Assembly: GCA_032718475.1 (NCBI GenBank)
Contig: JAUCBJ010003330.1
Location: 31,259-95,258, forward strand
Origin: Nemertoderma westbladi
Lineage: Eukaryota > Animalia > Xenacoelomorpha
DNA length: 64,000 nucleotides
Direction of reading: 5' to 3'
Numbering within the stretch: position 1 is the stretch's first letter; the number at the start of each line of letters is the position of its first letter. The position numbers and the translations under genes were made by a program. Below are positions 13,838 through 44,262 of this stretch, piece by piece. The notes beneath the pieces were generated by a model that was not told the DNA's origin, did not search any database, and saw only the letters and a program-made list of their open reading frames with translations.

Positions 13838-14197
13838 ATGACTGAGTTGATAGAAGATGAGCTTGGTATCAGTGAGCGATATACCCTACCACTGCAAGCG
13901 TTTGTTGATAGTTTGATAAGCGGCGACGCTAGTCAACATACGATGGAAGACGATGGCCGTTATATCAAACCGCCAATGTCAAAAGAACAGCTCAAGCGTG
14001 AATTGGACTATAGGAAATTCACCGCTTGCTATACGCATCGTAATGTTACGTATATGGACTTCTTAACTACTGGTCATCCTGTCGATTTACACGATATGGA
14101 CGATGTAGACACCGAAAGGGAAATGATTCTATTTAAATATCATACCCAGCGAAGTCGGAACGATAAACTGAGCATTGAACATGAAAATTCTCTTTGA
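13838..14197 (+). CDS. Hypothetical accessory ORF inside BEL-1 (119 aa, no recognised domain)
   Basis: ATG-initiated, protein-like composition, sense to the element, between integrase and the 3' LTR. Confidence 0.4.
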   Translation: MTELIEDELGISERYTLPLQAFVDSLISGDASQHTMEDDGRYIKPPMSKEQLKRELDYRKFTACYTHRNVTYMDFLTTGHPVDLHDMDDVDTEREMILFKYHTQRSRNDKLSIEHENSL

Positions 14198-15327: not shown

Positions 15328-15915
15328 ATGATTATCGGCATGCCAATTACATATATACAATACATTAATATACTTGAAATACTTGACCAACCTATTATGG
15401 AGATTTATTGTGCTTATTGTAGACTCAACAATCTACACATTTTCGCAGTTTGTCCTCAATTTATGACTCAATGTCACCACTGTCAATTCAAAGGACATGC
15501 CAGTTTCGATTGCCCTTTCAATCAAGATCAAGAAGGAGTTTATGCGTTTCACCCATACCTCTCTTCCTCCGTTGAACAAAAATCTCGCTCCCCCAGTTAC
15601 GAACTGATGAAACGTGTTGGCGAGAACATTTCAACCAAATACGTTCGCAAATATCTGAGGAATATTAATCCCAATAACTCGGATTCTTATAACTTGATCA
15701 ACTTCATCCATCAAGATCCGGAATATGGTGACTTGTTCATAAACTCACATCCTGAGTTACAAGAAGTTCATAGAAGACCATATGAATATAAAGCCAGAGA
15801 ACGCGAATTAGAGAGAATAATCAAACCGACGAAATTTCTCACTACACACGGTCAACCTACCACTGTCGTGCAAACGACCCATCAAGGACCAGTAAAAGCT
15901 GCCCTGCCGTCTTGA
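15328..15915 (+). CDS. BEL-1 accessory zinc-knuckle protein (likely start ATG 15397)
   Basis: CAYCRLNNLHIFAVC-PQFMTQ-CHHCQFKGHASFDC has the same knuckle pair and 6-aa linker as the accessory ORFs of BEL-2 and BEL-3. Confidence 0.7.
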   Translation: MIIGMPITYIQYINILEILDQPIMEIYCAYCRLNNLHIFAVCPQFMTQCHHCQFKGHASFDCPFNQDQEGVYAFHPYLSSSVEQKSRSPSYELMKRVGENISTKYVRKYLRNINPNNSDSYNLINFIHQDPEYGDLFINSHPELQEVHRRPYEYKARERELERIIKPTKFLTTHGQPTTVVQTTHQGPVKAALPS

Positions 15916-16222
15916 AATGAGCTCTAAAGGTTGTTCGCCCTCGATCCACCGATGTCGACATCGATCAACCGGGTACCTCGACCGGCGGATACACCGATCG
16001 TAATCCAAAACCTTCTGATGCTATTGTATTGCACCCTTCCCCCAGGAGTTATAGCCCTCCTAGTAAAGTGGCTCACTCCAAAGAGAAAAAGACTCTTACT
16101 AGTCTTAAAAAACTCCGTAAACGCCGTTCGAGAAAGAAGGACTGATAGTTAGAGTATTTTTATATATTAGAAACTGTGATTTTTTATATTTTATAGACTT
16201 AAATCCCATTTTCTGGGAGCGG

Positions 16223-18844
16223 TGTAAAAGCTTTTGCGGACATAACAAGTCGTTTTTACGCAATGCGCTGAATACTCTAAAAAGGCCTAAAATTGTTCAA
16301 CTACGCGTCGGTCAGAAATTAGAACCAAGATGACGAAATCTGTCAGCTGATTCTTTGTGTACGTGGAGATTTCTTTGTTTGGGCCTATTTCAGCCAATCA
16401 GAGCAATCTTCCCAGTTATGCCAATAGAGACCTACCTGTGGAAATTGGCGCATGCGCAGTTTTAAGTTTTTCTGAGAATCCAATTCCTTTCTGGATTCTG
16501 TACTAAGTACAGACGTTTCAGACTTTGGCCCAAGAACATCTGATGGCTGGAGTTATAAGAACGTAAATCTATTAATCGCATTTCATGCGGCATCTTAACA
16601 CTCTTATAAGACATACTGACTCTGTTCACCGCACTGTTTTAATGCTGTTTATATTGTTGTTAATTGCTGTTTATATTAATGGATGTTATATTTGGAGAAT
16701 ACCTATAAATAATCGTAAACCCCTCAACTTTCTTAATTACTGAGGTAAGCAGAAGGGTCTACCGGTAGCAACTGCGACTCAAATTATAGTGGTTTTTGAG
16801 TGGATTAAATGCTATTTCATAATCCCTACGTGTGTCAGTTGCAATCCTCCATATATATGATCAAAATCAGTGACGGTCGGCAAATTAGTGTGAAGTCGTG
16901 TGAAAGTTAATAAAGCATCTCCTAAAGAATGCGCTATTTACAAGATTCCATAGCCATCTAGTTGTGATTAGTGTAAGTCATAACTCTGTTTTATACTTAA
17001 AGTGCCACATCCTAAAGGAACTGTTAATATTTCCCCAAAAGTAGATATAGTTGTCGGAGATCATATAGTACCGATCAATCGAATAATACAAAGTAGCCTA
17101 CACCGCAATAACTTTCTCTGGACCCGAATCCAGTCTCCCACACAGTGGGTCATACGCCGCGCACGGACTGGCTACGGCGGATGTAAATTCAGTACACCAG
17201 GTAATTGGTAAGAGCAAAAGTCGATTTATAATTAACCCTATTAGTACCGGGCTATAAAATGTTGTACAAATACCGGGGAGGGGTCATATTGACCCCCCCC
17301 TCTAAAATCTACAAATATTTACGAAAACGTCTGATTTTTTGTTTGTACGTAGGTATCACTTGTCTGGATCCGACCGAAAAAAAAAATTTTCGAAAAAATG
17401 TACTGCGGTGGTTATATTGCAGCACCAAAATTACAAGTAGTGCACAATTTTCACCAAATTTGAAAGTTACATTTTCGGCTAATTATTTTTCAATACAGGT
17501 TTTCTGGGGTGCAAAATACATTGGAAAATATTAAAAAATGATATGATTACTATAAATGGCTGTTTAGTCCTCTCTGCGTAGGAAAAAAATGAAAAAAACA
17601 AGTAACCAGCACTTTTCAGTTAGAACACAAAATTTGTAATTCACTTATACGATGCTATAAATTCACATTTTCAGGTTTTCGAGGGCGCTGATTCTAATGG
17701 AATACATTTCTAATATGCCAGATCATTGCTACTTGTATTTTTCGGCGTAATTTGGCAAATTTTGGTGCTAGCACCAAATTTCGTACCCATCACCAAAAAG
17801 TACAAGTTTGCGATGTTCAGTGCTGTTTTTATTGATTCCATAGGATTCAGGACCCTCATAAACCCGTATAACGCAAGAAACAAGGTGATACTATCTACTT
17901 ATCAATTTGCATATTTTCCAAAATTTGGTGCTGGCACAACAATTTTCACCCACCGGCGAAAAATACAAGTTTGAGAACTCTTATGAAATTTTTACTGATT
18001 CCATTGAATTCAGAACCATCACAAACCCGTATAACGCAAGAAACAAGGTGACACAATAAATTGATATATTTGCTGGTTTTCAAAATTTGGTGCTAGCACC
18101 AAATTTTGCACCCACATCCGAAAAATACAAGTTTGAGATGTCTAGATCGATAATTATATTTTCCATTGAATTCAGAACAGCCATAAACCTTTAAAACGCA
18201 AGAAATAAATTGTCACAAGCAATTTTATCTATTGAATGGATTTTCAAAATTTCGTGCTAGCACCAAAATTTGCACACAGCACCGAAAAATACAAGTTTGA
18301 TACGCTTGGTGCAACTCGTATATATTTCATCGAATCCAGAAACCCAAAAAACCCCAATTGCGTAAAAAACAAGTTTCAAACGATCAATTTACAAAATTGA
18401 CTTATTTCGAAATTTGGTGCTGGCACCAAAATTTGGCACCCACCGAAAAAAACAAGTTTGAAATTTCTAAATCAATTTATATGAATTCCATCAAATTTCT
18501 AACACCAAAAAACCGGTGTAAATCAAAAATAGAGATGTTACAATCATATTTAATGAAATGTAATTTTCAAAAAACGTCTCAAAAAAAGTGCCAAAAGTAG
18601 GGTTAAAAAATGGTGCTATAACTCGAAAAGTACCCAATATTTTTGAAAACGGTTTTCACTACTAGGAAGACAATAGATTTTTAGGAAAAGTCATAAAATT
18701 TCAGATTCCCAACTGCGTTTGTTTCAGAATTATAATAAAAAAACCACGGGGGGGGGGTCATATTGACCCCCCCCCGGGTTTAATAGGGTTAAAGGGACAT
18801 TTAAATTGGCAGGTTAACTGCTAAAAGGTCTAAAAGCGCGAACA
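16223..18844 (+). repeat. 3' LTR of BEL-1, interrupted by a piggyBac-like insertion
   Basis: Matches the 5' LTR from 16223 to ~17231, resumes at 18793 (AGGGACATTTAAATTGGCAGG) and ends GCGCGAACA at 18844. Confidence 0.9.
17236..18788. mobile_element. Non-autonomous piggyBac-like DNA transposon
   Basis: TTAA target duplication (17232-17235, 18789-18792). Termini CCCTATTA...TAATAGGG. Subterminal palindromes GGGGTCATATTGACCCC at both ends. Internal ~165 bp repeats built on AAATTTGGTGCTAGCACCAAATT. No transposase. Confidence 0.9.
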
Positions 18845-22607: not shown

Positions 22608-24913
22608 ATGTGGCGAGTGGGGGGGGGGGGGGCTACAGGGGCCCCACAACAGCGAGTTAGCGGCGAAAGGGGGGGGGCAGAGAGTGACCCACAGCCGTCA
22701 GCGGATAATGCGCGGGCCAAAATAGGTAAACCGCAACAACCGGTGACGGAAAGTAATAGGGGGATTGCGAGTATCCCCAGCGGCGTGCGACCGAGCAGAA
22801 AGAGACAGGTTGACGTCGTAAGAGGGCGGACGAAGCGTCGAGCCCGATCAGAAGAGGGAAGAAGAACAGTGGGGTTTAACCGGGAGGTCGACGAGAGATC
22901 TCACGAGCGGGAATACTCCACTGAAAGGAGAAGAAGAGAAGACAGTAGTAGAGATATCGCCGCGAACGATAGAAGAGCGAGGACGGATAGCGAGCCGTCG
23001 GTAGTTGAGATGAGGACGGAGAGTCAGTGGGGTCGGACTCCGGGAGATTGCCGTCGCCCCGGAGAGATGCGACCCGGCGAGGCGCACTACGCGCCGATGG
23101 AGGGGTACGCGATGTACCGGTACGAAGACGAGAACAGTAGAGGGGGGGGTCGAAGAGAAACTTTCAGACGGAATACACCTATCGATCGAGAATACGGTAG
23201 CCGCGGGGAGGATTATTCGAGAAGAATAAACTTCGATCCCGAACAACACATGCAGACTGTAGGACATACTGTAGGCCTTACTGCACATACCATAGGCCAT
23301 ACTGAGAGAGGCAATGTAGGCGATAGGATAGCGTGGACAACGGGATTAAACCCGGAAGTCGCGGAGTACATACCGGCGGGTAGGCCAGAAGCTGATAAGC
23401 CTATACCGGTACCAGTACAGCAGTATGACTACAGCATGCAGGGACATAACATATACCCAGGGGAGGGGGGAATTATTGCGGATAGGTGCATGGGCCCCAA
23501 CATATTAACATCAACCCCAGTACCAAACATACCGGTGGGGGGGGGGGACAGGGTGACATTCCCCCATCACAATATCAACAATATATCCCGATAGGAGCAA
23601 GAACAACGAGACCCTTGGATGAGAATAGGTCGTGTGACACAGAAATATGGAGGGGGCCGCTACCCCCGATGACATACCCAAGTCAGAGAAGATCGAGAAA
23701 TAGGACGGACGAACCGCACCAGACAGGAGAAACTATACAGCACCCGTCGAATCCATTGGAAGCGCAGGCGATGGGGATGGACACGTTGATCGATGCGTTG
23801 AAAACGAGGATCGAGCTACCACCCGTGGAACCATTCAAATTCGATGGGAGCAGGCCGGAAGAATATCTACAGTTTCGGCGCATGTATAGTAACGAAATAC
23901 TAACAAAAAACTTGACGCAGGCAGAGTGCCTATAGTATCTGCAAGTGTACACGGGAGGCCCAGCATACGATATCGTGAGGCAATATCAAGGAATAGAGGG
24001 CGGCTTCACGACAGCATGGCGGGCACTGGATAGGGAATACGGGCACCCGGCCAAGATCATCAGGCAGACGCTGAGAGGCATAACATCGGGTGGCCTACAG
24101 GATAATCCCGTTAGCATTAAGACGTTCGCTAACAAAGTCGAAAAGGCGCTAATCGTGCTGAAGACGCTAGACGCGCCGTACGAGCTCAATGCGTCCAACA
24201 ACATCACCACGATAGCGCAGGCACTACCAAACTGGCTGCGCAACAAGTGGAGGAAAATCGCCTTCTCCACTCGAGATAAGAAGGGTGCGGAACCGGGTTT
24301 AGAAGAAATGTCAAACTTCTTAAACTACGAGGCTGAACTAATAACTGACCCAGTCTATAGCGAAGACAGCCTGGGAAAGGGACCGAAGACAGACTACCAT
24401 AGACCGAAACCAGAGCACAACACATCAAATGCATTACCGAGACTCAGGCAATCATTGCCATATGCAGCGACGCAGGGGACTGCAAGTCCACAGCTAGCCG
24501 AGGATAAGACAACACCATGGAACGGACAGGGAAACAATAACAACACGAATAAACATAACCCCAGTACGTCCAGTAGGCTAAATCCAAACAATAAGAATAG
24601 TAGGGACTTTGGTACAAACGCAACTGCGATACGCAATGCACTGTATAAAGATGGCTACGACCCAAAGAGCAAATGCCAGCTACACGCAAATGCGCTTCAT
24701 CAAACCATGAACTGCAGGTACTGGCAGGCGCTACCTAGGCAAGATCAGATAGATTATGCGTTCAGCAATAAAATCTGCTCGCGATGTGTAATAAGTGGAC
24801 ATAGAGCAAGGGAGTGCAAGGAGAAGCCAATAAAATTTGGTCAGAGGAGAGGCCAAACGATGGTGACGAGCACAGTAGGGGCGAAGAGAGAGGAACGGTG
24901 TTACTTGGAGTAG
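22608..24913 (+). pseudogene. gag: BEL-2 gag (frameshifts at G-runs, in-frame TAG at 23933)
   Basis: LPPVEPFKFDGSRPEEYLQF, YTGGPAYDIV, AWRALDREYG, LPNWLRNKWR, CQLHANALHQTMNC, CSRCVISGHRAREC. Confidence 0.88.
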
Positions 24914-27900
24914 TACCAGTGCGAGTGATCGGGGAAGGCAATCGATCAGTAACAACACTAATGCTGGTTGATAGTGGAGCTGCCTTCACATTAGTCGAGG
25001 AATGGGTGGCCGAGGAGATAGGATTGAGAACAAGGCCAAGCAGAATGGTGGTAACAACCATCTCTAGCAAAGATGAGATCCTGGAGATGAGAACAGGACG
25101 GTGCGCAATTGCAGCAGTGGCACCAGGATGCGACTATGGGGCAACCATCGACCCCATCCAAGTGATAGAGTCAATTAATATTAATGCCAGGCGACCAACC
25201 AACATCGAGGTCGAGCAGTATAAATTCTTGGACGACATTGACTTCTCAATCCCAGACGTGGACGTTAGGAAGGTGTCCATCATAGTAGGCATGGACTGCC
25301 CAACGGCCCACGAAAGAATGCAAACGGTCTTCGGCGAAGACAAGCAGAGTGACCCGGTGGCCATATTAACACCATTCAGGTGGACGCTGAGTGGTCCAAT
25401 TAAGAGCAAGATACCATTTAGGATGTCGGAGACATCAGGATGCATGTTCGCGGGAACAATGCAGGAAATGGGTGACGAGGGAGCAGAGGAGCAGCTTAAA
25501 AGACTGCTCAGACAGGATTTCGAGGGATTGAAAGAAAACGGGGTCGGGACCTCAGTAGAAGACAAGCAGGCTTTACAAAGCGTGGAGGAATCGATGACAT
25601 GCAATGAGGGGCGGTATACTATAGGAATGGTATGGAAACTACCGAAGATACCGCTGCCCGACAATAGGGGGATGGTACTCACGAGACTCCGCAAGCTGAA
25701 ACAAACACTAAAACGGAGCCCCGAGAAGAATGAGTACATCCACAGAACAATTAAGAAGTACGTCGAGAAAGGATGGGCCGTGGAGTTACCGGTCGATGAG
25801 CCGAACACGGACAGGACATATTACCTGCCACTACACGTGGCTTTAGATCCAAAGAAAGGTAAACTACGGATGGTAGTCGACGCATCGGCAAAGACCGACG
25901 GAAAGTGCTTAAAAGACTACCTGTTAGAAGGCCCAAACATATACAATTCGGGCATAGAGGTGTTACTTAGATTTAGAAATGGGAAACACGCCTTCACGTG
26001 TGACATAGAAGGCATGTTCAACCAAGTCCGTGTAACGGAAGAAGATAGCGACAGTCAACGCTTCTTATGGTATAACGGCGAGGAATAACCGTCGATAATA
26101 CCGGCATATAAGATGGTAGTACAGAACATGGGGGCCAAGTCGTCTTCATTTACGACGACTATGGCAGTGAGAGACACAGTAAAGGGGAAGGAAGATAGAT
26201 ACAGCAGTAGGGCCGTCGATATTATTCGACGCGGCTTCTACGTAGACGACGGAATGGAGTCTGGAAATACGGTTAAGGAGATACTGGATACAGGGCGCGA
26301 GGTTCGCGACATCCTAAAAGGATCCGGCTTTAACCTGACCAAATTCCAATCCAGTTCGGAAGAATTTATCAAGGCGATAGAGGACAAGAGGCCAGAATCG
26401 ACCATGGATAATCCCACAACAGCCAAAGGGCAGGACATGGCGATTAAGAGAACAGAATCTCAACAGAAGGCATTGGGAATCGTGTGGGATAGAGAGACAG
26501 ACGAACTGAAGTATCAGCTGAGCCAGGAGGGCGCAGACATCCACACGAAGAGGGGCTATGTATCGTATATAGCAAGGATATACGATCCCCTAGGCCTAGC
26601 ATCCCCATTATTAGTCACGGGGAAACAGATACTCAAGAGAGTATACAAACTGAAGGATGAGTGGGACGTAGAGGTACCAGAGGAAATCAAGAAACAGTGG
26701 AGCAAGTGGACAGGAGACTTGGAGAAGATGGGAACATACAACATGCCACGGGTGTATTTCCCGGATGGGAACATGACGAATCTGGACCTACACATGTTCT
26801 CCGACGCGTCGTTGGAAGCGTACGGAGCGGCACTCTACTTAGTACAACGAGAGGGGGCTCATAAGCCAAGATTAGCCTTTAGCAAAGCAAAGTCAACGCC
26901 ACCAGATACAGCATCAGTTCCTAAGTTAGAATTGACAGCCGCGAGACTAGGAGTAAGAGCCACAGCCTACCTAGTGGATACTATTCCCAACATAGTGGAG
27001 ACACACTACTGGACGGACTCCATGGTAGTGCTTGGTTGGCTACACAACGAAAGGACGAGATACCCGATATTCGTCGCGAATAGAGTGGACGAAATAAGGG
27101 CGAGTACAGAACTGGAAAGGTGGCACTACTGCCCAACAGACGATAACCCAGCGGACTTGTTGTCGAGGGGCGTGGTACGCCACACTTTCTTGAAGAAGGA
27201 AGTATTGTGGCAACATGGGCCACAATTTCTGAGTGATAAGGAAGCCTGGCCGCCGATGAGAAAGGTGGACCCGGGCTCGGAAGTAGTATCAGAAGGAGAA
27301 GAGGGAGATTCAGAGGGAGAAGAGATATACTCCCAGATGGTGAGGGAGATTAGGGACGTGCAACCAGGACGGGAACTGTGCAATAACCCGACGGATAAAC
27401 TCCTCAGCTACAGTTCTAGTTGGTATAAGACCAAGAAACTAGTGGCGTACTGGAGAGCCTTCGGGAATTTCCTTGCGGGAGTTGGCAAGGACAAGAAGAT
27501 CAGGACAACCATAGATCTGGAAGGAGCGGCCAAGGCAGTGATCCGCTATGAACAACGGAAGAACTATGGCGACGAGGTGGAACGCGTCGGTAACCAACAG
27601 CACCTCCGACGGGACAGCGAGCTGATTACGCTGTCGCCACAACTCAATGACGACGGGATTCTAGTAATGAATTCTAGGGTGGGATACAACAACAGCATAG
27701 TCGTACCACCGAAACCCATCATCATTCCCACAGGATCGCCAATAGTCCACCAGATTATCTGGGACTCCCACAAATCGATATTGCATGGGGGCACCAACCG
27801 AACCCTCACAGAAATAAGGAGGACCTATTGGGTCAAACAATTGAGGAAGAAGGTAAAAGCGGTAGTGGGGCAGTGTCAGACCTGCCGACGAGCGAAGAAG

Positions 27901-28878
27901 GAGCGAGCCATACAAGAGATGGCGCCACTACCAGCAAGTAGAGTAAGACAGCACGACCCGCCATTTACGCATTGCGGTGTGGACATGTTCGGGCCGATAA
28001 AGATCAAAGTGATGCGACACACGGAGAAACACTACGGCATTATCTTCGTATGCAACAATACGCGGGCGGTAGGGATAGAACTCGCCCAAGATGCAACCGC
28101 ATCAGCGTTCATTAACGCCTTAGAAAGGTTTAGGGACCGCAAAGGTGGGACGATCGCAGTGATATACAGCGACAACGGCACCAAATTTGTGGGCGCAGAG
28201 AGTGAGATGGCAGAGGCCTTGGACATCTTGGAGGGAGAAGAAGTCAGGGCAGCCATGAGGCGACGACAAGTAAAGTGGGAGAGAAGGACGCCGTATGCAC
28301 CACATACACTAGGGTGCGTCGAGAGACTGGTGGGCAGTTCAAAGCGTCTAATGACGAAGCTAATGAACACCCACATGGTCACTGAGGACGTCTTACGGAC
28401 AGTACTTGCGAAGTGCGGGGGGATCATTAATAGCAGACCGCTATATCCGGAGAATGATGACCCTGAGTCATTAGACGTGCTGACGCCTAGCCATTTCCTG
28501 ATGGAAAGGCCAGCGACCATCGATATGCGGGGTGTAGACCCAGATGACATACACTCCCGCCAAAGTTGGAAAGTCGCTAAAGCAATAAGCGCAGAGTATT
28601 GGAGGAGGTGGGTCGAGGAATACCTACCCACACTCCATAAACGAAGCAAGTGGAGGAAGTCAAACAGGGAGTTAAGAGAGGGAGATCTCGTAATCGTTAC
28701 GGATGATACTATCATCAACAACCAATGGCAGTTGGCGAGAGTTGTAGGCACCTACTCCGACGAGGACGGAAGAGTCCGATCGGTAGAAGTGCGGATAGGT
28801 GGAAAGATATGTGCGAAGGACAGAAAAACCTACAGGAGAGCTGTAGGCAAATGCTGTCTGTTAGAAGGGGCACCTTAG
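24814..28878 (+). pseudogene. pol: BEL-2 pol (PR-RT-RNase H-IN; one in-frame TAA at 26086)
   Basis: LVDSGA; YYLPLH...KLRMVVDASAK; DIEGMFNQV; FYVDD; YDPLGL; LHMFSDAS; YWTDS; NPADLLSRG; GVDMFGP; SDNGTKF; INSRPL; GDLVIV...W.LARV (DUF5641-like tail). Confidence 0.95.
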
Positions 28879-29012
28879 TAGAGTTAAAGAAAAGTTTAGT
28901 CGTCCAAGTTTTGGACTGAGGGGGGTGGGATTGAGGGCGAGAAGCCCTTCCCACAAACAAAATAAAAAAAAAATAAAATAAAATAATAGTACATGGTAGG
29001 TACGCAGTTAGT

Positions 29013-29630
29013 ACGAGAGAGTTAGTTAGAAGGTACATAGTACCTAGTTAGTTAGTTAGTTAGAAGGTACGTAGTACCTAGTTAGTTAGAGAGTTAGAGG
29101 GTACGTAGTACCGCTAGTTAGTTAGAGTTAGAGGGTACGTAAGTACCTAGTTAGTTAGAGAGTTAGAGGGTACATAGTACTGCTAGTTAGTTAGAGTTAG
29201 AGGGTACGTAAGTACCGCTAGTTAGTTAGAGAGTTAGAAGGTACGTAGTACCGATAGTTAGTTAGAGAGTTAGAGGGTACGTAGTACCGATAGTTAGTTA
29301 GAGAGTTAGAAGGTACGTAGTACCGATAGTTAGTTAGAGAGTTAGAGGGTACGTAGTACCGATAGTTAGTTAGAGAGTTAGAAGGTACGTAGTACCGATA
29401 GTTAGTTAGAGAGTTAGAGGGTATGTAAGTACCGATAATTAGTTAGAGAGTTAGAGGGTACGTAGTACCCTCTAACTAGTTAGAGAGTTAGAGGGTACGT
29501 AAGTACCGCTAGTTAGTTAGAGAGTTAGAGGGTATGTAAGTACCGCTAGTTAGTTAGAGAGTTAGAGGGTACGTAAGTACCGTTAGTTAGTTAGAATTAG
29601 AGTTAGAGGGTACATAGTACCGTTAGTTAG
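29013..29630. repeat. Tandem minisatellite (~34-37 bp unit, roughly 17 copies) between BEL-2 pol and the accessory ORF
   Basis: Unit TAGTTAGTTAGAGAGTTAGAGGGTACGT(A)AGTACCG(C/A) repeated head to tail without unique spacers. Confidence 0.95.
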
Positions 29631-30118
29631 AAGAGAGAGAGTAAGAGGTAAAAAGGGGATATAGATATATATATTAGTTAGCAGTTAGTAGAGAGAGGGG
29701 GGCATATGAGTACAGCTGGGTAAATCGTGTGGCCACACGACGCATACTGCTGTACTGCATAGGCCCACAGAGTAGGCCAGAATGTGGATTAGAGAATAGA
29801 ATAATCCATAGGCAATAGTAAGTAGTAGGACAGTAGAATCAAAATTAAATAGATGAATAAATAGAATAGGGCTGAAAGTTACAAATAATGGCAACACAAG
29901 GAAAGTTATTCTAGAAAATAATAAAAGTAACGGACAGAAATTGTAAATTATGCCCATTTACTAGCTTCAAAATTAATTAGTAGTAATTTAGGTTAAAAGG
30001 CGCAGTTAAGTAAGAAATAGGCCATTATCGAACCGTACAGAACATCCTAGATACATCACTCATCTGTATTGCGCCTTGGTAAGGCACCACCCTGCAGGTG
30101 AGCGAGTGAGTGTTCGGA

Positions 30119-32667
30119 ATGGCGAGCAAGTTGATCAGGAAGAGAAAGGCGGAGTCAGGAGGAAAGGAGATACTGGTGGATTTCACCGAGAGGCATCCGG
30201 AAGAGAAGACGTGAGCATACTACGAGAGGTTGGAAAGGGGTCACGCGGCACGAGCGCTGCAGGATCACTTCAGGGAGATGCACGAACAGCGGCTGGTCGG
30301 GACCTACGGGACGCCGTCGCTGGACAACGCGATCTTCCAACACTTCCACTACGTGGTGAAAGGGGACGAGGCGAAGTTCAGGATTCCGAAGTACCCGAGG
30401 GAATCACCGAGGAAGGACTGGAAGAGATTCATAGAGTCCGTCAACAGAGGAGGATATATGATCCTAGACGACGAGGGAACCGTGGAAGACGAGGCGGGTT
30501 CGAGACGAGGATCGGCGGGGTCGGCCAGGACCATACTCCTACATTTGGCCGCGCCAAATGGGGACATCTTCTTATTCGATCTAGGAATGTATGGGAAGAA
30601 GGACGGGCCGAAATTAAACCGGTTACCGAAAGCGGTACAAGTCTTAGTAAGAGAGAAGTCGACGACGAAAGTGGGATCGGCGATTCGCGAGGACGCGGAG
30701 AGGATCATCGGTCCGGACGCCACCAACCTCCTGGATATGCAGAAAGTCTTTATGGCTATGACGGCACCGGATGGGTTGGGGGTAGTCGAAAACACAGGCC
30801 AATGCGGGGCGGTGGCAATGGGCCAATTATTGGGGCTCGTATGCCACAAACCGATGGACTGGGGGAAGTTTAGGGAAGAATACGGAGCAGAACTAGCGAA
30901 CTCGCTAAAGTGGGGAGCGAGACCGGGAAAGCAGGAGGTATATCAATTCCGCAGGGGAGCGATAAAGGTATATATCAGAAGCGATATATCCTGCAGGAGG
31001 ACTGGATGATGATAAGTTTGCTTAACTTATTCATGACCGTGGTTATCGAGAGGGAACCAGGGGCATTTCTGTTATCGGGATCACCCCTAAGCTACAGGAG
31101 AGCCTTTAAGACGGCCTTTGACGGTCTGGTAGACCACCCGGGGCTGAAGGGCGAGTCGGTGTACTACAACAGCCGGCATCTGGTAGACAGGGAGACAGAT
31201 ACACCGTATCAGAGATGGGAGCAGCTAGAGACGGATAGATGAGAAGCAAAGCGACTGGAAGAAGTCGCTAGACGGGAGAGGATAGAAGCAGAGGAGAGGG
31301 AAGAGGAGGCCAGGACACAGAGTTACGGCTTCGAGGAACAGGCAGGCCTAGACGAACTTCATTGGACTTCATCAGGGAGTTTGGGGGAGTCTCTACGGCG
31401 AGAACTGGGATGGACGGTGGGATCGCCGAAACAGTCGACGTCGGGGTTGTAATCGATGCCCATACCAGCGGGCGCCGAGGGCGACCAACCGCCAAGGAAG
31501 TTAAGGGAGCTAGAGGGATGGAGAGCTACGGGCGAGAGCCAAGGCGGGAAGGGACACAGTGGATCCATCGGGATACCGGGGTTGGAGACACTGCCAGAAG
31601 AGGAGGACGACGACGACGAGTTCGGAGAGATGCCGCCCATCGAGAGGATAGGCCACTCGGACACGGACTGGGTTGGCGGAAGGGTGGTGACGGCCAGTGG
31701 GGCGAGGGCCTTCTGGAACAGATCCGGCAAGCGGACCTGGGTGCACGAGGAGCCGGCGATGGATTTCGCGGGGAGCACTATCAGGTTGGGCGAGCAACCG
31801 GGGACGGCACCACGGATAGTATTCGGGGAGACGATGCCCGAGAGGGGCGGAGAGATCGACGTAGATAGAGAGCCCAACGTAGAGAAGTTCGCCTACCAGC
31901 GACTCCACAGACCGTGGAGATCGCTTGGGACGAAAGACGAGGTGGGACGGGAGACATTGGTACTCGGCTGCGACTACTGTGGGAGACAGACCCATCGGGA
32001 AAGGAGCTGCCTATACCGGTTCCAGAAGGGAACCTTCTGTCTCTACTGCCGAGAACCAAGCCACAGGATGGGGGCGTGTCCACGGTTGCATAACCGATGT
32101 CCAAAGTGCCACTTTTGGGGACACTACGGATGCGAGTGCGACTGGATGAACGACGAGGAGAAGTTTACAAGATTCGAGGAGTGGGCCGACGTCGGGGCCA
32201 TGACGCGCCAGCGCATGAAGGCCCAGGAGTTCAAGTGGGGTTTCTTCCTTATCAATCAGGAGACTCACATGGAGATCATAAAGCGGAGGCTACCGTTTAC
32301 CTACCAAGAGGTAGCAACGGCGGCGTCGTACGCCGGAGTGATGAACACGCAAAGATATTTGGACAGGTGGACGCCAGAGAACCGAAGGGAGTTTAGGGAT
32401 TTCTTGGCGGAGCACGTACCACAAGCAATGAAAATGATCCTATGGGACGCCACCAGAGGGAGACAACCGGGCCACTCTGAGGGGCCACTGGCGAAGCGAT
32501 ATCGGGCACTAATAACACCAGCGCCCAAGGAGCCAACGACCGGGATCAGCATGGAGGTGGCGGCGAAGGTCCGAAAGCAGAAAGCGGATCCCAGAGGAAC
32601 GGTGGTAACCAAGAAACGACCCAGGGAAGAGGACGCCAGGGGGGACTATCCCCAGAGGAACAGATAG
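30119..32667 (+). pseudogene. BEL-2 accessory ORF3: DEDDy 3'-5' exonuclease plus three CCHC zinc knuckles (3 stops, 1 frameshift)
   Basis: ATG 30119 is in frame with 30230..31009 across TGA 30212. ORFs 30910..31242 and 31456..32667 share a frame across TGA 31240 and TAA 31450. Motifs: MILDDEG, LLHLAAPNGDIFLFDL, LPKAVQVLVREKSTTKVGSAIREDA, LLDMQ, LKWGARP, RYILQED; three CX2CX4HX4C knuckles. Confidence 0.8.
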
Positions 32668-33380
32668 GTTCCCAGAGCCGAGGGAGAGAGACTGAGACTT
32701 GGACGTGGTGCGCCTGGAAGGCGCCGCGTGAGACGTACGAACTATTAAGTACAAATTTAATTAATGCAAATAATCATATAAGTGCAATTTGTATGTACGT
32801 ATGTAGTAATTAGTAATCTACGAATATATACGCTGGGAGTAAGTACTATAGTCATACAACCTTTCTCAATTAGCTACTGGGACTGGGGGATAACTGACTA
32901 TGGCACTATGGATGAGACACCAGACAATTTCACACTTCTTGAGTGCGACGGCACAAGAGGGGGGGGGGGGAGATTCGTCAGAAGGGATGAGGCAATCGAA
33001 ATGGGGTTGAGGGACGCAGTAATAGTGCGAAGTGCGGAGAGAGTGCGGACGCAATTCTAGTGTGGGGGGGGAGAATAAGAGGCTGAGTGAGGGACGAGGA
33101 GGTCCGAGTGTATGAGAGAGTTAGGATGAGAGTGAAGAAGAGATAGGGCGGAAGTGTTGGGGAAACAAAAGTTGCGTGAGAGGTGAGCGCGATCGGCCCG
33201 ACATGAGACGCCAGGCACACAGGGTAGCGTTATCATACCCATAGGGAGCGGCCTGGAAAGCCGGCTCCGAGAGAAAAGAATTCCACCCCACACCCGATGC
33301 TAGATCGGGATCCAGCGGGATTGTAGCGCACTTTTTTGGTTGATGCTATCTTCTTACCGGGAAGATAGCATGGGGGGGAG

Positions 33381-33889
33381 TGTTAGCTTATTCAATCCCG
33401 CCAACACCCCATAAAGTTAAGCCGATAAGCAATATTGGGAGCCACGAGATTGGGTAATTAACCAACTCGTGCCATCCCAATGAGAATGGGAAGGAGAAGC
33501 ACACAATGAGGGTCAGGGGCCAAACCCCTAACCCAGAGAGAATAGGTGGAGTGAACGGGAACACTCCAAAGGGCGCCAACAAGGGTATCAACCAATCAGA
33601 GGGGGGAAAGGCATCGATTAGGTAGAGTAACAAGGCCAACCGGGCAATATAGCCACTTGGCAGTAATCATATCAATTCAGTTATCTCAGTGCAATACCGG
33701 TGCTAGATTAGGTTACATAGTTTAGCTAGGGAAGGACCGGGACTTTAGTTACCGTATCCCGCCTTCCGTATACGACAATATTATCTCATATCTATATCTA
33801 TATCTATATCTGCATATCCAAATATTATATACGACAAACAGCACAAACTCATTCACTCCTTATACATGGCGGGGATGCGTGAACTAACA
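33381..33889 (+). repeat. 3' LTR of BEL-2 (509 bp)
   Basis: Directly after the PPT, with inverted termini TGTTAG...CTAACA. No second copy seen in the window. Confidence 0.7.
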
Positions 33890-34730
33890 ACGGATAAGCC
33901 GGGATCCCTCTTGGATCCCGTCACACTATCTAAGCATTCATAATTTAATCAAGCACACTTTAGCAACACACCAATCAGCGTAACAATCAATAGTCAATAC
34001 TTACCAATTTGTAGTTCCCAATGTACAATTTACAGTCTGCAGTTCGCAATATGCAGTTCGCAGTATAAAGTTCGCAACGTAAAGCACAAAGGCCTCTCCC
34101 GGGTACATGTAGGCTTCCTAACTAACCCGATTCCTGCCCCCCTAACACTAAAAAATAGAGACAAAATCTGGATCATCAGCCCCCTAATTACTGTACCAGC
34201 AATCAGTCTTCCCTCTACACTGCTAGCCCTCCGACCGCAACGGTGACCCACCGCCAGCGTTGCTCGCCTTTGAATCCTCCGCACTCCCTTCGTCGCTACC
34301 CCCCGGTGCGCCCGCCGCACCTACCGGTACCTTAGCCCTCCATTTAATGAGTAGCTACCGTAATGGCGCATGCAATCACACAGTCTGACAGTCTAAAGAA
34401 ATCCCGTGGGATTATCGCTGTCATGTCTCGTAGTGCGAGCGGAGGTTATGAAGTAAATAACATATATATATTTGAGTTCAATATAATACTAGCACACGTA
34501 TAATGTTACGGTATAATAGCATCAAACATGTTGCGCTGCAGCCATGCTGCATAAGTGGTTCGCGCATACAGCTGTACTGTGTACAGGGGGTCCTGGGGTC
34601 AGTATCTAGCAGTACTGCAGTAATAAGCAGTCTGGATGTACCGTTAAAGCCGTAAGTATGTATATCCTTAGTATATTCCCTTCACCCATGTTGCCTTATA
34701 ATACAGTATAAAGATTGGGGCGAGCCATGA

Positions 34731-35091
34731 CGATGGGCATGACGATGGGATGGCACCAGGTTGTGGGCCGATCGCCCACACGTTCGATGATGCCCTTTGC
34801 CTCCATATTCTCGATTTCGCGCTTCGCCTGTTCCGATAAGGGAACGGAATGGGGCGGGCTGCATAAATGCATAAAGGTACAAGCATTTTCCACCAACTCT
34901 ATTGACATTGGTGGGCCACACATTGTTTTGAGGTGTCCGTCCGTTTGGAAAACATCCTTAAACTCCTCTAGGAATTTGAGTTTAATTTTGTCGTTGTTTA
35001 TCGAAAGTTCGTGTTTAATTTCGTCAGAGTTTATCGAAAGTTCGTGTTTAATTTCATCAGAGTTTATCGAAAGTTTTGTGTTTAATTTCAT
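34731..35091 (-). pseudogene. pol: Gypsy RT N-terminal remnant fused to the LTR; includes 30 bp coding repeats
   Basis: LEEFKDVF...LKTMCGPPMSIEL...EIENMEAKGIIERVGDRPTTWCHPIV, then an abrupt join to the LTR. KHELSINSDEI repeats at ~34980-35120. Confidence 0.8.
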
Positions 35092-35114
35092 CAGAGTTTA
35101 TCGAAAGTTCGCGT

Positions 35115-36988
35115 TTAATTTCTTTGGATTCTGAGTTTATTGGTAGTCCCCGCCCGTTTTGTAGCTGCGGCGTATGATTGTTTGGGGGCGGGTTCAGCGT
35201 CTGATTTCGCGGAAACGCCCCGAACTTCCCGTTTGATGTCTGGGCGAATAGTTGAAATTGGTTTGGGGAAATCTTTATGTACTATTCCCAAACCTTTGCA
35301 GCCCTGTAGAGATATGTAGATATCTGTTCCCATATCCGGACATAATTATTATTATTATTATTTATTTATTCCATACCATAGGTACATATTAAAATACAGT
35401 AAAATATACCCAAAATACATAAATAAACCCACTCTTTATGAGTGTGGCCCCCTACAGAGAGTTCCATAAAAAGTTTACCCTCACACTCGATTTGGCAACC
35501 GTTTGCTGATTGCAGTGGAAAATCGGGAGGAATTATTTCAGTCGACTCTGGTAATTTCCACTCCGATTGTATCATGGAGCCGGCAACAGTGACCTGGGCT
35601 CCCGTATCAGCGATACACATGTTTTTTCCCACATATTTGCCCGATTTGTGGAAATCTACCGCGATAAGCGCACGTTTATTTGCGGCGGTGCGCTTGTGGA
35701 TGTCAGTGATAAGGACGGCGCCGGATGTTTTTGGAGGAATTTTGGATTTAGGTTGTAAACACTGTGCGCCGAAGTGTCCAGTCCTCCCGCAGTTACTGCA
35801 ATCCTTTCCTGCAGCTCTGCAGGGTGCATTGTTGCTGTGGGGAAACTTCCCTCCACAGTGAAGGCATTCCCCCCATTCTTTTGCCGTGTTGAGGAGTTCT
35901 AGGGCGCGGTTTGAGGAAGGACTCCGCCCCGTAGCGGAAGTTTCCTTCCCTTTCCGGTACCTACTCTTAGGGCGTCGACTACATCCCCTGGGTGGGGGTG
36001 TTTGCGGAGTCCGTACTGCATTCACACGCTGCCCTCTTATGAGTTTAGTATCCCTTGCTGCGATTTCGCGGCACCGGCAAAAATCGAGAGTTTCCAGTCG
36101 TGTTAGGGGTGGTCGTTTAGTAAAGAGTTCCTCCTGTGTTTCATCGTCATGGATACCTCGGATGAGGAGCGTATTAACCCAGTCGTCTGGGGTCATCGTT
36201 TCGAGACCAGCGTCGTCTGCCAGCTCGCACAGTCGTACGTAATAATCATCGAATGTCTGGTTCTCCGACTGTTTTAGTTGGACGAGTTGGTGGCGGTCGA
36301 CAATGAGGTTCCTCTCGGAACGGAGGTATAAGTGGATCTCCTCCATAACTTCCGCAAGAGTTTTGTCCGTGTTTACCGGGATGTTTAGGCGATGGTGGAT
36401 GCGGTTGAGGAACTCGGCAGAACAATTCGAAAAAAAGACTGCAAGTTGATCCTCCCGAGGTTTCTGGGATAAGTGGACAACGGTACAGTAGTTGCTCCAC
36501 TGGATCTCCCAGCATTTGTAGCGCTGAAACGTGATATCTACTTCGAGTTTCTCGGGGGCTCGAGCGTTTAGTTTTACGGTTTCGCCAGGTCCGGGGTTCC
36601 GGGGGGGGGGGGGTGCGCCTGCGGGTCCCTGTCGGAGAAATTCCGCCCTCTCTTCTGCACGGAGACCATCGCGATGTTCCTCGCGGCGTTCATCGTTCTC
36701 CCGGCGGTGTAGCTCCTCTTCCCGGCGGCGTTGTTCTTCCTCGGCACAGTCACGCTGAAGGTAGATCAGAAACTGCGTTAGGTCGGGCGGTTTATGTTTG
36801 TCACCCTGTTCCTGGTCGCCAAGCGCGCCCTTGAGTTGATTGCGTAGTTTGTTGGACGATGTTTTCGGATTGAATTGGATTCCAGCATTTGTACAGTGGA
36901 TCTTAAGTGTCTCCCGGTCGAGATTATCAATTTCCTCGAGCCGTAGATCGAGCCATTCGTCAGGTTGAATGGGTGTTGTCCTTGCCAT
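35115..36988 (-). pseudogene. gag: Gypsy gag-protease
   Basis: QLKQSENQTFDDYYVRLCELA, CSNCGRTGHFGAQC knuckle, IADTGAQVTV protease. The frame continues into 35115..35333 once the 77 bp insert at ~35340-35422 is removed. Confidence 0.88.
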
Positions 36989-37142
36989 CCTGGTCAGCTA
37001 GTGTTGTAAGTTCCACGTAGGTTAAATTCTACTGGCTCTGTTTGCCAGCTACACACTGACACACTGCGCCATGTCATGTCTCGTAGTGCCATGTCATGTA
37101 TCGTAAACTAAGAAATAGAAATCAATCAAGGGAAAAGGGCGC

Positions 37143-37953
37143 CTATCTAAGCATTCATAATTTAATCAAGCACACTTTAGCAACACACCAATCAGCGTAA
37201 CAATCAAAAGTCAATACTTACCAATTTGTAGTTCCCAATGTACAATTTACAGTCTGCAGTTCGCAATATGCAGTTCGCAGTATAAAGTTCGCAACGTAAA
37301 GCACAAAGGCCTCTCCCGGGTACATGTAGGCTTCGCTTCCTAACTAACCCGATTCCTGCCCCCCTAATACTAAAAAATAGAGACAAAATCTGGATGATCA
37401 GCCCCCTAATTACTGTACCAGCGATCAGTCTTCCCTCTACACTGTTAGCCCTCCGACCGCAATGGTGACCCCCCGCCAGCGTTGCTCGCCTTTGAATCCT
37501 CCGCACTCCCTTCGTCGCTACCCCCCGGTGCGCCTGCCGCGCCTACCGGTACCTTAGCCCTCCATTTAATGAGTAGCTACCGTAATGGCGCATGCAATCA
37601 CACAGTCTGACAGTCTAAAGAAATCCCGTGGGATTATCGCTGTCATGTCTCGTAGTGCGAGCGGAGGTTATGAAGTAAATAACATATATATATATTTGAG
37701 TTCAATATAATACCAGCACACGTATAATGTTACGGTATAATAGCATCAAACATGTTGCGCTGCAGCCGTGCTGCATAAGTGGTTCGCGCATACAGCTGTA
37801 CTGTGTACAGGGGGTCCTAGGGTCAGTATCTAGCAGTACTGCAGTAATAAGCAGTCTGGATGTACCGTTAAAGCCGTAAGTATGTATATCCTTAGTATAT
37901 TCCCTTCACCCATGTTGCCTTATAATACAGTATAAAGATTGGGGCGAGCCATG
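37143..37953. repeat. Direct repeat (~810 bp) of 33926-34730: ~495 bp flank plus Gypsy LTR
   Basis: CTATCTAAGCATTCATAATTTAATC...GGGGCGAGCCATGA is near-identical at both positions. Confidence 0.95.
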
Positions 37954-38309
37954 AACACAACAATCGCATCTTAATCACATAGAACCATTAATCAAAGGGT
38001 AGAAATCATAGTTCTGATTGTATTTGGCAGTAATCATTGAGATCGATTAAGAAACACAGCAAGAAATAAGCAGAAATTACAAATTTGCGAATTATTGCAA
38101 GAAAACAAATGGAAATACAGAATACACAGAATTATGCACAAAAACTGAGATTAGTGAGATGCACCTACCGGAAATACAGCCAATTTATAGGTGATTCATA
38201 AAGGATGATGCAATAATCCTCTGATTGGTTCCCCAATCCGCGCTACCATTAGACCAACCTGGAAGCAGCTAGGCCAATAAGGAAGCCGGATTGTGAACCT
38301 ATTCCTTCC

Positions 38310-38671
38310 AGAACCTTCCAGAGCATTCCATGGCCGCACATTGGAGCAATAAGATGTTCTATGCCCTATGATTGGCCCAACTCATCGTTCCATGTGTTGT
38401 ACGCACCTCATTGGTTTATCAAATTGTACCAAATGAAAATAAATTACCCCAAAATGCAAATTTCCCAACTGGGATTCGAACTCGTAACCTATCTGTAATG
38501 CAACCAACGCCTTAACCATCTGACCACTACGCCATGAGATTAACTACGGGTTTTATGTGTATTAATATGAATAGGCATATTACATTACTGTAACTTAATC
38601 AAAATGCGTCGGATTTTAGAAAGTTTTTACGTTAAACTACAAATGCTATCTTATAGTGAAATAATCCATCA
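38310..38671 (-). repeat. Shared (U3-side) part of the BEL-3 3' LTR
   Basis: Near-identical to 52092-52342 plus 53427-53537. Begins TG on the minus strand directly after the PPT-like TTTTCATGGAGCGG. Confidence 0.75.
38464..38533 (-). promoter_or_regulatory. tRNA-derived segment with Pol III A/B boxes inside the LTR (second copy 52247-52315)
   Basis: Minus strand GGCGTAGTGGTCAGATGGTTAAGGCG...GGTTACGAGTTCGAATCCC has an A box-like TGGTCAGATGG and a B box GTTCGAATCC. The acceptor stem does not pair. Confidence 0.65.
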
Positions 38672-40537: not shown

Positions 40538-43500
40538 TCATCCACGCCCTCTAATACGATTGGGTGGTGGTCGGGATCGAACTGGACTCGGACTTCGGTG
40601 TCGAGCTGTCGGTGGTTCCAAAACGCTAGGAAAGGGGACGACGGGAGTTTCGCACATCCGTCGTGCGCTCAGTCCTCTAAATCCTCGTCCGATTCCAATT
40701 GTTGGCTTAACATCGGATCGAGTCTCCACAACGCTGGGAGGAAGTCGAAAGGGTGGGACTGTTCCGTCCGCTGACACCTTGCTCTCTGACGTCGTCTGAA
40801 TTCTAATGGGTTCCGGCAAAGCGTATCCTGTCCCTCCGCGTGGTTCTCTAGTGAGGGAAACTGTGCCCCAAGTCATCCGGATTTGCGACTTCGATGTCGT
40901 CCTCTCGGCGACATTTACTACCTTCTCTATCTCTTGTCCGGCCTTCTGGTCTCTAAGTATACGAAGTTGCAGATCATCCTGTGAGTGACGCGTCTTTTCG
41001 GCTAACGGCGTGGCCTTGAAGCCAGTCTCACACAAAACGTCCGTCTCGTCTAAAATACACGAGGTTACGTGTTTGTGATAAAATGCGCTCCTGTATGCCC
41101 AAGCTATCGAATGCCAGGCTCCTCGATTCTGCTGTTTGACTCGCAATTTGTCGAATTCCCCGGCGGTAATCTTGTTCACCACAGTTTGAAAGTTCCAAGT
41201 GTTCTTGTTGTCAGGGTGTACCTGTAGAAAGTAGTCCCGTCCCGCACAACCTTAAATCCGCTATCCAATGGCAATATATCCAGCACCTCCAAGAGTTCAT
41301 TGTATTGAGGCATAGCTGACACGTATCCTTCCTTCGACTTTATGAGAGGGTTTACGGCCCAAAATCCCAAGTGTGCTCTCATAGGGAAATGGCGTCGCTG
41401 TGTCGATACATGCTCGTCTGCTAGATTCTCCCAATGGTCGAATAGCTGTCGAATGATTTTAACTGACATGTGCTCATAGGGGATGTCCCTAAGTTGACAT
41501 TCGGATGCCCTATGACCTTTAATATTACAATACGTGCACTGCACCACGAAACGCCAGCAAGTGTAGAAAGTGTGCGAACGTTGATCCCCGCACCAGTTAC
41601 ATACTAAGTCTGGTAGAGATATATGTTTCGCTCCGCATTTCTTTGCGTGGGGGCCAGTTGCCCCGCATCTGCCACAAATAGTGTTGGCAGGGTACCAAAC
41701 TCGCTCATAGATAAGATCTCCGATGGGGCGAGCGCTACCGTCCACATGATAATTCTCATCATCCGGGTCAGTCAGTATGTTCGTCTCTGTAGGTTGTACA
41801 CAAACCATGGCATCGCTTTTCTCCAACTCGCGTATCTCAGTTCGTGTCTTCCTCGGAAGGTTCTCCTCTATCTCTATGAGTTGCCGCAACGGTTCGTCTA
41901 TTATCGCAAACTCGGTCGGATCCACATCGTCGTGATGGGTGGTAGGCTCGCGAGCCTTCCAGGATCCTTCCGGGCCTTTGAATTCCGCGTGGCGTTCCCT
42001 GTTGTAGGGTGCTAACGTAAACATCGACGGTCTGTCGACTAGGCTTCCCACGTGAGTGAGATAGATGTCCCTGAAAACGCTAAGTCCCGCTCACGTGAAA
42101 ACTTCGCAGTGCGCATCGGTGTTGTAAAAGGGTTGGAGAAATCGTCGGAATACATCAGTATGCGTCCTTCCTCTGTCGTAAAAGGTATGTCCTTCACCGA
42201 GACATAACGGATGTCGCTTTAGAGTCCTAGACACTACATCGGCGATGAAACAAACGTTTACCGAAGATTCTATCGCCAAATAGTATTGCAAGATTATTCG
42301 TGGAGGTGAAGTAATCGCCCAGTACACGCAACCTCGCCACTTTAGCTGTGACTCGAACTCGTTTATGCTGGGAGTATCTCCCTCTCCGTATACGTCCGTG
42401 TATTTGCTCATCTTACTCTCCTTATAATCCCAACTAAACATTAGGTATGAGATATAACCCGTTCCAGTTTTTAGCGTGTTATACTCCCTAAAATATCCTT
42501 GCTCAATAGCCCAAAGCAACAATGGTCTAGTATCCACGTATGGCATAGGCAATCGATCCTCATCCGTGGGCATTCCTGCGAAATCGCTAATAAGGTCATC
42601 CCGTACACCGGATCCGATCTTGACGATGCTCTTGTCAAGCACAACGTCTCGTATGGCCTTTGGCAACATTCTAGCTTCTATGCTACAAGCCAGGTCCATG
42701 GATTTAACTATCCGTTTTATCATCGCCTGTCTTTGCGTCATTCCTTCCGGCATAGGCATCTTTCTGTTGCTCCTCTGTCGGCTGAAGACATGTAACACGC
42801 CATCTGGTGCTCGAATCTGTATGGTCTTCGAAGTGAGGCTTTGCTGATGGCTTCGTCCTTCATTATCGTAAAATATATAACCATTCTCCTTCAGAGATCG
42901 GCTAGTCGCATCCCAATCGTCGAGTAAATCGTCGGTAGGGTTCCAAATTCTCCCAATTGACTTTTCATCATCGAAACTAATAGGTTTACCGGTCCAATTG
43001 GTCGCAATATTGGTGTCGGTTTCAAACGTTCCGACTCCAATCCATAATCGAATCGTTTTCGTCAGATATCCTCGCAAGATACAAGGTGCGATATCCGTCC
43101 CCGCGCGATCCACTTCCTTAAAGTCTGTAATATGTGGAGGCACATTGCGTACGATTTTCTGAACTATCGTTCTACGCAACTCGGCTGACTCTAACACATC
43201 ACCAAAGGTAACCGATAGGAGGAAATCCAGGTTCAAAATGATCTCCGGGTGTTCAACTATAGGAATCTCATAAGTTGTCTCCTCTCGGGTCGGTATACTA
43301 ATAGGAAAGCTGGTTGGTCTCGCGACCGGTACTATCGCTTTAGTAGGATGGGGCTGAGGTTCTCGCGTCATCTCGACATGAGGTATCTGTAGTCTCTGCG
43401 ACAAACGCTGAGCAAATGTGATACTATAGAAGAGCTTGGGTGTCATCTCCTTAGGTTCGGTTTGATCTTGGGATATCCAGTAAAATGGTAGGCTCGCGAG

Positions 43501-44262
43501 CCTTCCGCCGAACTCCTCGATCTCGCTTTTCTCGTACGCCTTGTATGCCCTGTAGAGGCTCAAAGCTTCCCATTTTTCTTGCGTCGACTTATTAGACTCG
43601 TCCACTACCATATTGTAGACGTCTGGTTCGACTAATTTGGGTTCGTAAATAACGATCTCACCCGCGTTCGGTCCACTCATCTTGAACGAATGGTACGGTA
43701 CGCCTTCTTGGTAACGCAGACTTTTGTGGTATGAGCATCGCGCTAATATCGGCTCGGGGTTCTCCGAGTTCAATCGCATAGGAATCGCGTTGTCTTGCTC
43801 GCGCATACATGCTCCACATTTGTAAAACAGTTTGTATATAGAGAACGCGTCCTTTGTCTCTGAATCCGCTCCTCGAGCGCGTCTATAAAGATGCATTCCA
43901 TCAAATTCGTCCCTAGCTGCAGGCAAGGGTTCGTTCACCGTCAAATATTGCAGCGTATGATATAATCGGCGTATCTCCGTGTCTGGATCCTCGCAAATGT
44001 CACTGGCGTCGCATAACGCATCGTAAGGATACAACGCATTGAACTCTGTGCGTAATTCCTCCGCTCTTTTGTTATAAGCATCCAATCGCTGTTTTGTAAC
44101 ATTCGGGTCCGCCTTGGATTTAGCGAGCTTGGCTGTACTCCTAGCCATACTCTCCACTCCAAACACGCTAAAGTTTTTAGCTCCATAACGATTAAACGGC
44201 GCCTAGTGCTCCTGTTCCTGGGTAAACCCCTGACGTAACTCCTTATAAATCTTCTCCGCCAT
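40538..44262 (-). pseudogene. BEL-3 accessory ORF3 (~1240 aa reconstructed): N-terminal unknown domain, DEDDy 3'-5' exonuclease, three zinc knuckles, Arg/Pro-rich tail
   Basis: ATG 44262 is in frame with 42091..44166 across one TAG. ORF 41176..42051 is in the same frame across TGA 42093-42091. ORF 40538..41182 overlaps by frameshift. Motifs: YIFYDNEG, TIQIRAPDGVLHVF, LPKAIRDVVLDKSIVKIGSGVRDDL, YVDTR, LKWRG, YYLAIES; knuckles CGRC..H..C, CNWC..H..C, CTYC..H..C. Confidence 0.8.

Follow-up and report, generated by a model that had tools for sequence, protein, structure and literature searches.

A BEL/Pao retrotransposon in the 64-kb window (the whole stretch of Nemertoderma westbladi DNA that was analysed) carries an accessory gene, ORF3, between the end of pol and its 3′ LTR. 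The gene is kept by purifying selection, and it very probably encodes a domain with a WRN/EXD/RNase D-like (DnaQ-type) fold, followed in the same frame by three zinc knuckles. The nuclease ORF3 as a theme of retroelements is known, if little studied, whereas the combination of a BEL/Pao host, a WRN/EXD-like domain and a probable triple-knuckle fusion appears to be new.

The element, BEL-2, has a gag-pol region at 22608..28878 (+), identified with Pfam and the ORF list, which is broken by stops and frame changes. Its Pfam matches (DUF1759, Asp_protease_2, Peptidase_A17 at E 1e-40, Integrase_H2C2, rve and DUF5641) follow the BEL/Pao order of a DUF1759 gag, protease-RT-RNase H (Peptidase_A17)-integrase and a DUF5641 tail; the RT core is without a Pfam match, yet lies in the expected place. 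The spacer between pol and ORF3 holds an unstranded tandem array of ~36-bp units (29024..29650; repeat listing and translation), and the array length differs among copies in contigs from public runs. Beyond ORF3, the sequence shows a polypurine tract (33372..33380, +) and a complete 509-bp 3′ LTR (33381..33889, +) with a 6-bp terminal inverted repeat, TGTTAG/CTAACA, and TG...CA ends (TGTTAG...CTAACA). The boundary of this LTR is also visible in the contigs, many of which have loose ends at 33891. Within the 64-kb window there was no second copy of it, whether as a 5′ LTR, as paired LTRs or with a target-site duplication. The window copy is therefore 5′-incomplete and, given its broken gag-pol as well, dead.

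Three-frame translation of 30000-33400 and the ORF list place ORF3 at 30119..32667 (+), from an ATG at 30119, with ~848 codons between the pol end (28878) and the polypurine tract and LTR. The frame is broken by three stops (30212, 31240, 31450) and one frameshift near 30970. The earlier note had described just such a sense frame of about 850 codons, with this number of breaks and a set of motifs, and all of it was recovered where noted. MILDDEG contains the DxE at 30467-30475; it is followed by LLHLAAPNGDIFLFDL and then LPKAVQVLVREKSTTKVGSAIREDA, whose last D is at 30692, by LKWGARP at 30905, by RYILQED at 30982 after the frame change, and by three CX2CX4HX4C knuckles. The segment LPKAVQVL...KVGSAIREDA ends at the same ExoII D, 30692. 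Coding-strand purine fraction is 0.62 in ORF3 and 0.61 in pol, against 0.51 in the one host gene of the window, a GPCR. A CAG/GTGAG at 30095-30102, 17-24 bases 5′ of the ORF3 ATG, resembles a splice acceptor plus donor and may mark a spliced ORF3 message.

In the BEL/Pao (Belpaoviridae) elements roo, Tas and Cer7, the ORF3 position is taken by an env. BEL-2 shares with them the type of gag-pol and the place of ORF3 before the polypurine tract and LTR, but its ORF3 has no transmembrane stretch (the best 19-residue hydropathy is 1.2-1.5) and no glycoprotein match in Pfam. Since it has no membrane segment, it is not an env.

BEL-2 is a multi-copy family. We compared 28000-34000 with four public sequencing runs, two of them from one sample, which yielded 19725, 8822, 250 and 43 contigs. 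These cover 30 of 30 bins of the interval in three runs and 22 of 30 in the fourth, and no contig among the four runs joins pol, ORF3 and LTR. The breaks in ORF3 were compared over 40 of 808 variant rows, among which neither of the stops at 31240 and 31450 appears; the figures express contig depth and not copy number. In each of the four runs, nearly the whole contig depth has another letter at the first stop (30212), and a length difference is present near 30970 in 79% (run X1) and 69% (run X3) of contig depth. Other copies thus seldom have either of these two breaks, which are mostly private to the window copy or its assembly. Run X6, labelled organism B, contains pol, ORF3 and LTR pieces of BEL-2 with few differences; these may represent the family in a second species, or a mislabelled or mixed sample.

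ORF3 is kept by purifying selection. Among the best-supported 40 of 79 variable sites in the exonuclease region (30400-30960, selected by the tool), 28 lie at the third position of a codon; 32 are synonymous, where changes of the same kinds would be expected to yield 12.2. This excess was reached in 0 of 200,000 simulations, and the crude pN/pS for these 40 of 79 sites is 0.11. Neutral dN/dS, which the earlier note had named as an outcome that would count against its proposal, is not what this region displays. Read in the other two frames, the same 40 variants give 9 and 3 synonymous changes. All three of the listed variants within DDEG and LKWG are synonymous. In the knuckle-bearing piece, 5 of the 10 listed sites are synonymous, too few for a rate, and by position none of the 10 alters a zinc ligand.

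The domain at 30440..31030 (+) was assigned to the WRN/EXD/RNase D group, as a likely 3′-5′ exonuclease, because several weak tests are concordant: the ESM Atlas, a PDB profile search and profile-profile alignment, read together with the motifs. In the ESM Atlas, 25 of the 30 listed matches to the BEL-2 domain fall in PF01612 clusters (best 0.94, 185 shared features), as do 24 of the 30 for the corresponding domain of a second element, BEL-3 (best 0.90). The best BEL-3 match shares 152 features, below the guide value of 170, and the PF01612 share of members in the matched clusters is 11-79%. The PDB profile search with both domains returned seven sequences at E up to 10, in which the only natural proteins are mouse WRN, human WRN and EXD2 (E 0.07, 0.65 and 1.1) and the other four are designed TIM barrels. 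Finally, hhalign against 12 RNase D/PolA-type domains aligned ExoI and ExoII in register, along with the DT motif that follows, with a score of 22.9 compared with 12.8 ± 2.1 in 60 shuffles (max 20.3), at E 0.013-0.016 and a probability of only 3%; the alignment ends before ExoIII.

The ExoI DxE (30467-30475) is in register in hhalign and lies on a predicted strand in a low-confidence BEL-3 model, and the ExoII D (30692) aligns with the D85 column of RNase D and with WRN (PDB profile, hhalign). The candidate ExoIII, and with it the fourth ligand, reads Y-x3-E in both elements (30985-30999 in BEL-2), at a point that the profile alignment falls short of. From ExoII to the candidate E there are ~100 residues in ORF3, compared with 70 in E. 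coli RNase D and, in the available part of PMC7797062, 85 in the Trypanosoma brucei RNase D, TbRND. If Y-x3-E provides the fourth ligand, the site would depart from DEDDy. Catalytic activity through the resulting D-E-D-E site is reasonably likely, as judged from sequence.

Other methods place limits on this assignment. The Pfam search that the earlier note had proposed for the repaired protein found no PF01612 match to the domain at E up to 0.05 or 10, and the domain is therefore likely a remote relative of that family, not a member by profile. ORF3 has in common with WRN, EXD2, EXD1 and Mut-7/Nibbler (PF01612) the DxE and the segment LP..(V/L)..L...KS..K.G...(E/D)D; it differs from this group in falling below Pfam detection, in its long insertions and in a candidate ExoIII with E. 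The DNA_pol_A_exo1/RNase D-like pattern proposed at the outset is supported by the Atlas, by the PDB profile and, for ExoI and ExoII, by hhalign, but not by Pfam or by an alignment of ExoIII. ORF3 showed no sign of a helicase, an HRDC or any other partner domain. AlphaFold gave a low-confidence model from a single sequence (pLDDT 33); on three rows it gave another weak one (pLDDT 40), with a helix, three strands and helices in the order of the N-terminal half of the DnaQ fold. Models of this quality neither support nor count against that fold. Foldseek returned no match to them at E 0.001, and VIA gave none above background.

Homology searches of sequence collections returned no relatives. None of 2485 candidates for the BEL-2 piece among longer proteins, none of 815 for the BEL-3 region and, at E 10, none of 2724 for the BEL-2 plus BEL-3 domain alignment was a homolog. 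Neither phmmer against 1.84 billion representative proteins (E 0.001), single-sequence PDB searches with ORF3, nor phage records gave a match. Among metagenome contigs, none of the 47 pattern matches to the exonuclease piece held up; for pol, 1 of 142 did, and this 3.4-kb contig (L001) has neither a post-pol region nor an exonuclease match.

The window itself holds a related gene. BEL-3 ORF3 (41179..44166, −; 996 codons, in-frame stop at codon 692), delineated by translation and alignments, lies ~650 bp after a BEL integrase at 44814-45668. On the same strand it has a DxE at 42867, ExoII near 42600, Y-x3-E at 42282 and three knuckle-like motifs at 41676-41497. Its exonuclease-like domain is 32% identical to that of BEL-2 (68 of 211 columns; Smith-Waterman score 93, against 30 ± 5 and a maximum of 55 in 2000 shuffles), and the DxE, ExoII D, LKW and Y-x3-E are common to both. 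The C-terminal half of pol is 31% identical between the two elements; that pol and ORF3 have diverged to the same extent is consistent with long inheritance together, which two elements cannot prove. The N-terminal ~420 residues of BEL-3 ORF3 (42913-44166, −) contain Cys/His clusters, are absent from BEL-2 and have no Pfam match. No LTR pair of BEL-3 was found in the window; a two-copy repeat of ~360 bp (38310-38671 and 52092-53537, one copy split by an insertion) was considered for this role, lacks TG...CA ends and is left unassigned.

A third element, BEL-1 (3202-17231), is an old full element with paired LTRs (3202-4253 and 16223-17231, 81% identical), an alanine-rich gag repeat (6903-7200), a duplicated stretch in its pol-ORF3 spacer (12639-13040) and a 4-kb decayed post-pol region. 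Between its pol and 3′ LTR, this region retains a knuckle pair (15403..15606, +) homologous to the ORF3 knuckles (tblastn E 5e-6, blastp E 4e-9), and no exonuclease domain was detected in this badly decayed stretch by HMM or tblastn. The place after BEL pol therefore recurs in both other elements of the window, with domain and knuckles in BEL-3, for which no LTRs were found, and with the knuckles only in BEL-1.

The three CX2CX4HX4C knuckles of BEL-2 ORF3 (31969-32010, 32038-32079 and 32098-32139, +) are exact matches to the motif, of which there are eight in the six frames of the whole window. Shuffling the 404-aa piece produced three motifs in 0 of 20,000 trials and at least one in 3 of 20,000. 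Exonuclease and knuckles share one frame without a gap in both BEL-2 and BEL-3, and we consider it probable that they are fused in a single protein. Two in-frame stops in BEL-2 and one in BEL-3 intervene, with a Met soon after the stop in each element. Because ORF3 has other breaks, decay is the simplest reading of these stops; two genes, or read-through, are possible. A six-residue linker separates the knuckle pairs of BEL-2 (32038-32139), BEL-3 (41497-41600) and BEL-1 (15400-15513), differs from the BEL gag knuckles and recurs in a Ty3 gag pair at 35759-35860. The ORF3 knuckles could have come from a Gypsy-type gag; they have no significant sequence match to the Ty3 gag knuckles.

Published nuclease ORF3s are confined, within the literature searched, to rotifer retroelements. 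The precedent that the earlier note had named proved correct: DEDDy ORF3s occur in the bdelloid rotifer LTR elements Juno1/2 and Vesta2/5 and in Athena/Terminon Penelope-like elements, with a DEED motif and unproven activity (PMC5408684; for Athena/Terminon also the available part of PMC6431247). Like BEL-2 ORF3, they are non-env genes after pol, RNase D-like and without a transmembrane segment, and their catalysis is putative. Their host families (Juno, Vesta, Athena), unlike that of BEL-2 ORF3, are not BEL/Pao; their motif is DEED instead of D-E-D plus a candidate E; and no knuckle array is reported for them, only a Cys-His-Cys motif in Vesta2/5 (PMC5408684). The BEL ORF3s are ~850-1000 codons long; homology searches with ORF3 returned no Juno, Vesta or Athena sequence. 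The high-copy BEL-2 family and the distant BEL-3 place probable exonuclease cargo in another LTR superfamily, which suggests an old and repeated solution.

The earlier note knew of neither a BEL example nor a knuckle fusion. The first point stands in the literature searched, where no exonuclease ORF is reported for BEL/Pao, including the available parts of PMC6338049, PMC5718144 and PMC7998251; Repbase, Dfam, subscription papers and supplements lay outside this search and may hold some. The second does not, since TbRND (PDB 7C42/7C45) is, in the available part of PMC7797062, a DEDD exonuclease followed by CCHC fingers that trims small guide RNAs. In ORF3 the probable exonuclease domain likewise precedes an array of CCHC knuckles, in one frame but across intervening stops. 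TbRND, however, is cellular and bears four fingers on a 28-residue linker, as opposed to three knuckles ~310 codons after the domain in BEL-2. The knuckles of the two match weakly (E 0.35-0.39), and the exonuclease domains have no significant match.

We tentatively favor a role for ORF3 as an accessory counter-defence exonuclease of the WRN/EXD/RNase D type, with knuckles, that would degrade or trim RNA. To our knowledge, most BEL/Pao elements replicate without such an ORF3; for this reason we regard it as accessory, and from the same generalization we infer that counter-defence ranks above processing of the element's own intermediates. ORF3 would be expressed apart from gag-pol, as is usual for ORF3s, and its product would be soluble. 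Its knuckles would act like ZF1-2 of TbRND, gripping single-stranded RNA a few bases before the 3′ terminus and feeding that terminus into a two-metal site. The likeliest targets would be the small RNAs that direct silencing, their unmethylated precursors, or tailed RNAs. TbRND offers a concrete model for the likely knuckle fusion, as well as an assay: in that enzyme, the CCHC fingers bind nucleotides 5-9, counted from the 3′ end of the RNA, and trimming takes place at the DEDD site (available part of PMC7797062). A narrower version, in which an old BEL/Pao lineage uses its own knuckle-bearing exoribonuclease with a D-E-D-E site to destroy or mis-trim host piRNAs or siRNAs, having acquired it separately from the cases in rotifers and Gypsy elements, is possible but doubtful. 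A small-RNA target would settle whether the retrotransposons of animals code for enzymes that counter piRNA silencing.

It is somewhat unlikely, though a serious contender, that the enzyme instead acts on the element's replication intermediates, trimming genomic RNA, primer or cDNA at the 3′ end inside the particle or proofreading for the RT, with the knuckles as a second nucleocapsid. WRN/EXD2/PolA-type domains work on DNA as well as RNA. The knuckles weakly resemble retroviral NC (PDB E 0.03-0.6), and their six-residue linker is that of the Ty3 gag pair. For the rotifer DEDDy ORF3s, Rodriguez et al. 2017 doubt a role in silencing and prefer 3′-end processing (PMC5408684). Against such a role in BEL-2, the element retains gag knuckles and an RNase H of its own, most BEL/Pao elements manage without such an ORF3, and a product made outside the gag-pol polyprotein would need its own packaging signal.

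We consider it unlikely that the domain keeps the DnaQ fold in a catalytically weak or dead form and that its role, comparable to that of EXD1 or Maelstrom, is to bind RNA as a scaffold or decoy. Inactive DEDD derivatives do function in piRNA biogenesis (PMC5408684), and the fourth site of ORF3 is Y-x3-E, in an ExoIII that no profile aligns. The DxE, the ExoII D and the acidic residue of Y-x3-E are nevertheless kept between BEL-2 and BEL-3 at ~32% identity, and listed variants at the catalytic motifs are synonymous or absent, both of which argue for an active site over a scaffold.

Distinctly improbable is a pair of separate accessory genes, one for a nuclease-like ORF and one for a knuckle protein, or an RNase H-like fold other than DEDDy. 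The stops between the two parts, each with a Met soon after, and the knuckles-only remnant in BEL-1 would suit two genes, but the shared, gapless frame recurs in both BEL-2 and BEL-3. As for another fold, Hermes transposase, integrase and endonuclease V are among the matches to the low-confidence models; EXD2 (Z 4.1-4.2, rmsd 3.5-3.7 over 80-82 residues of the N-terminal half) ranked below ribosomal L38 and Hermes transposase, and a Z of ~4 is within background. Three sequence-based methods, on the other hand, converge on the WRN/EXD/RNase D group. Least credible of all is that ORF3 is of no use to the element, being a neutrally carried piece of host or foreign DNA or an insertion of its own: the four breaks in the window copy, and the fact that no contig from other copies runs from pol through ORF3 to the LTR, would allow it, but the strong synonymous excess largely refutes it, and the position and layout repeated in distant elements, the pol-like purine richness and the contigs filling all 30 bins in three runs speak against it as well.

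The remainder of the window contains further repeats and the single host gene that we saw. A young Ty3/Gypsy-like element (33927-37954, −) has LTRs of 805-812 bp that are 97.7% identical, an ACAC target duplication and ends that are not TG...CA. It encodes a single gag-protease ORF (35366-36997) and no RT; it is thus non-autonomous, and its insertion point lies 37 bp past the BEL-2 LTR. A 163-bp tandem array occupies 17750-18570, and Pfam identifies a LINE-type RT fragment at 50676-51839 (+). The host gene, which points to animal DNA, is an intronless rhodopsin-family GPCR frame at 54530-55903 (+), with a Pfam 7tm_1 match at E 2e-37.
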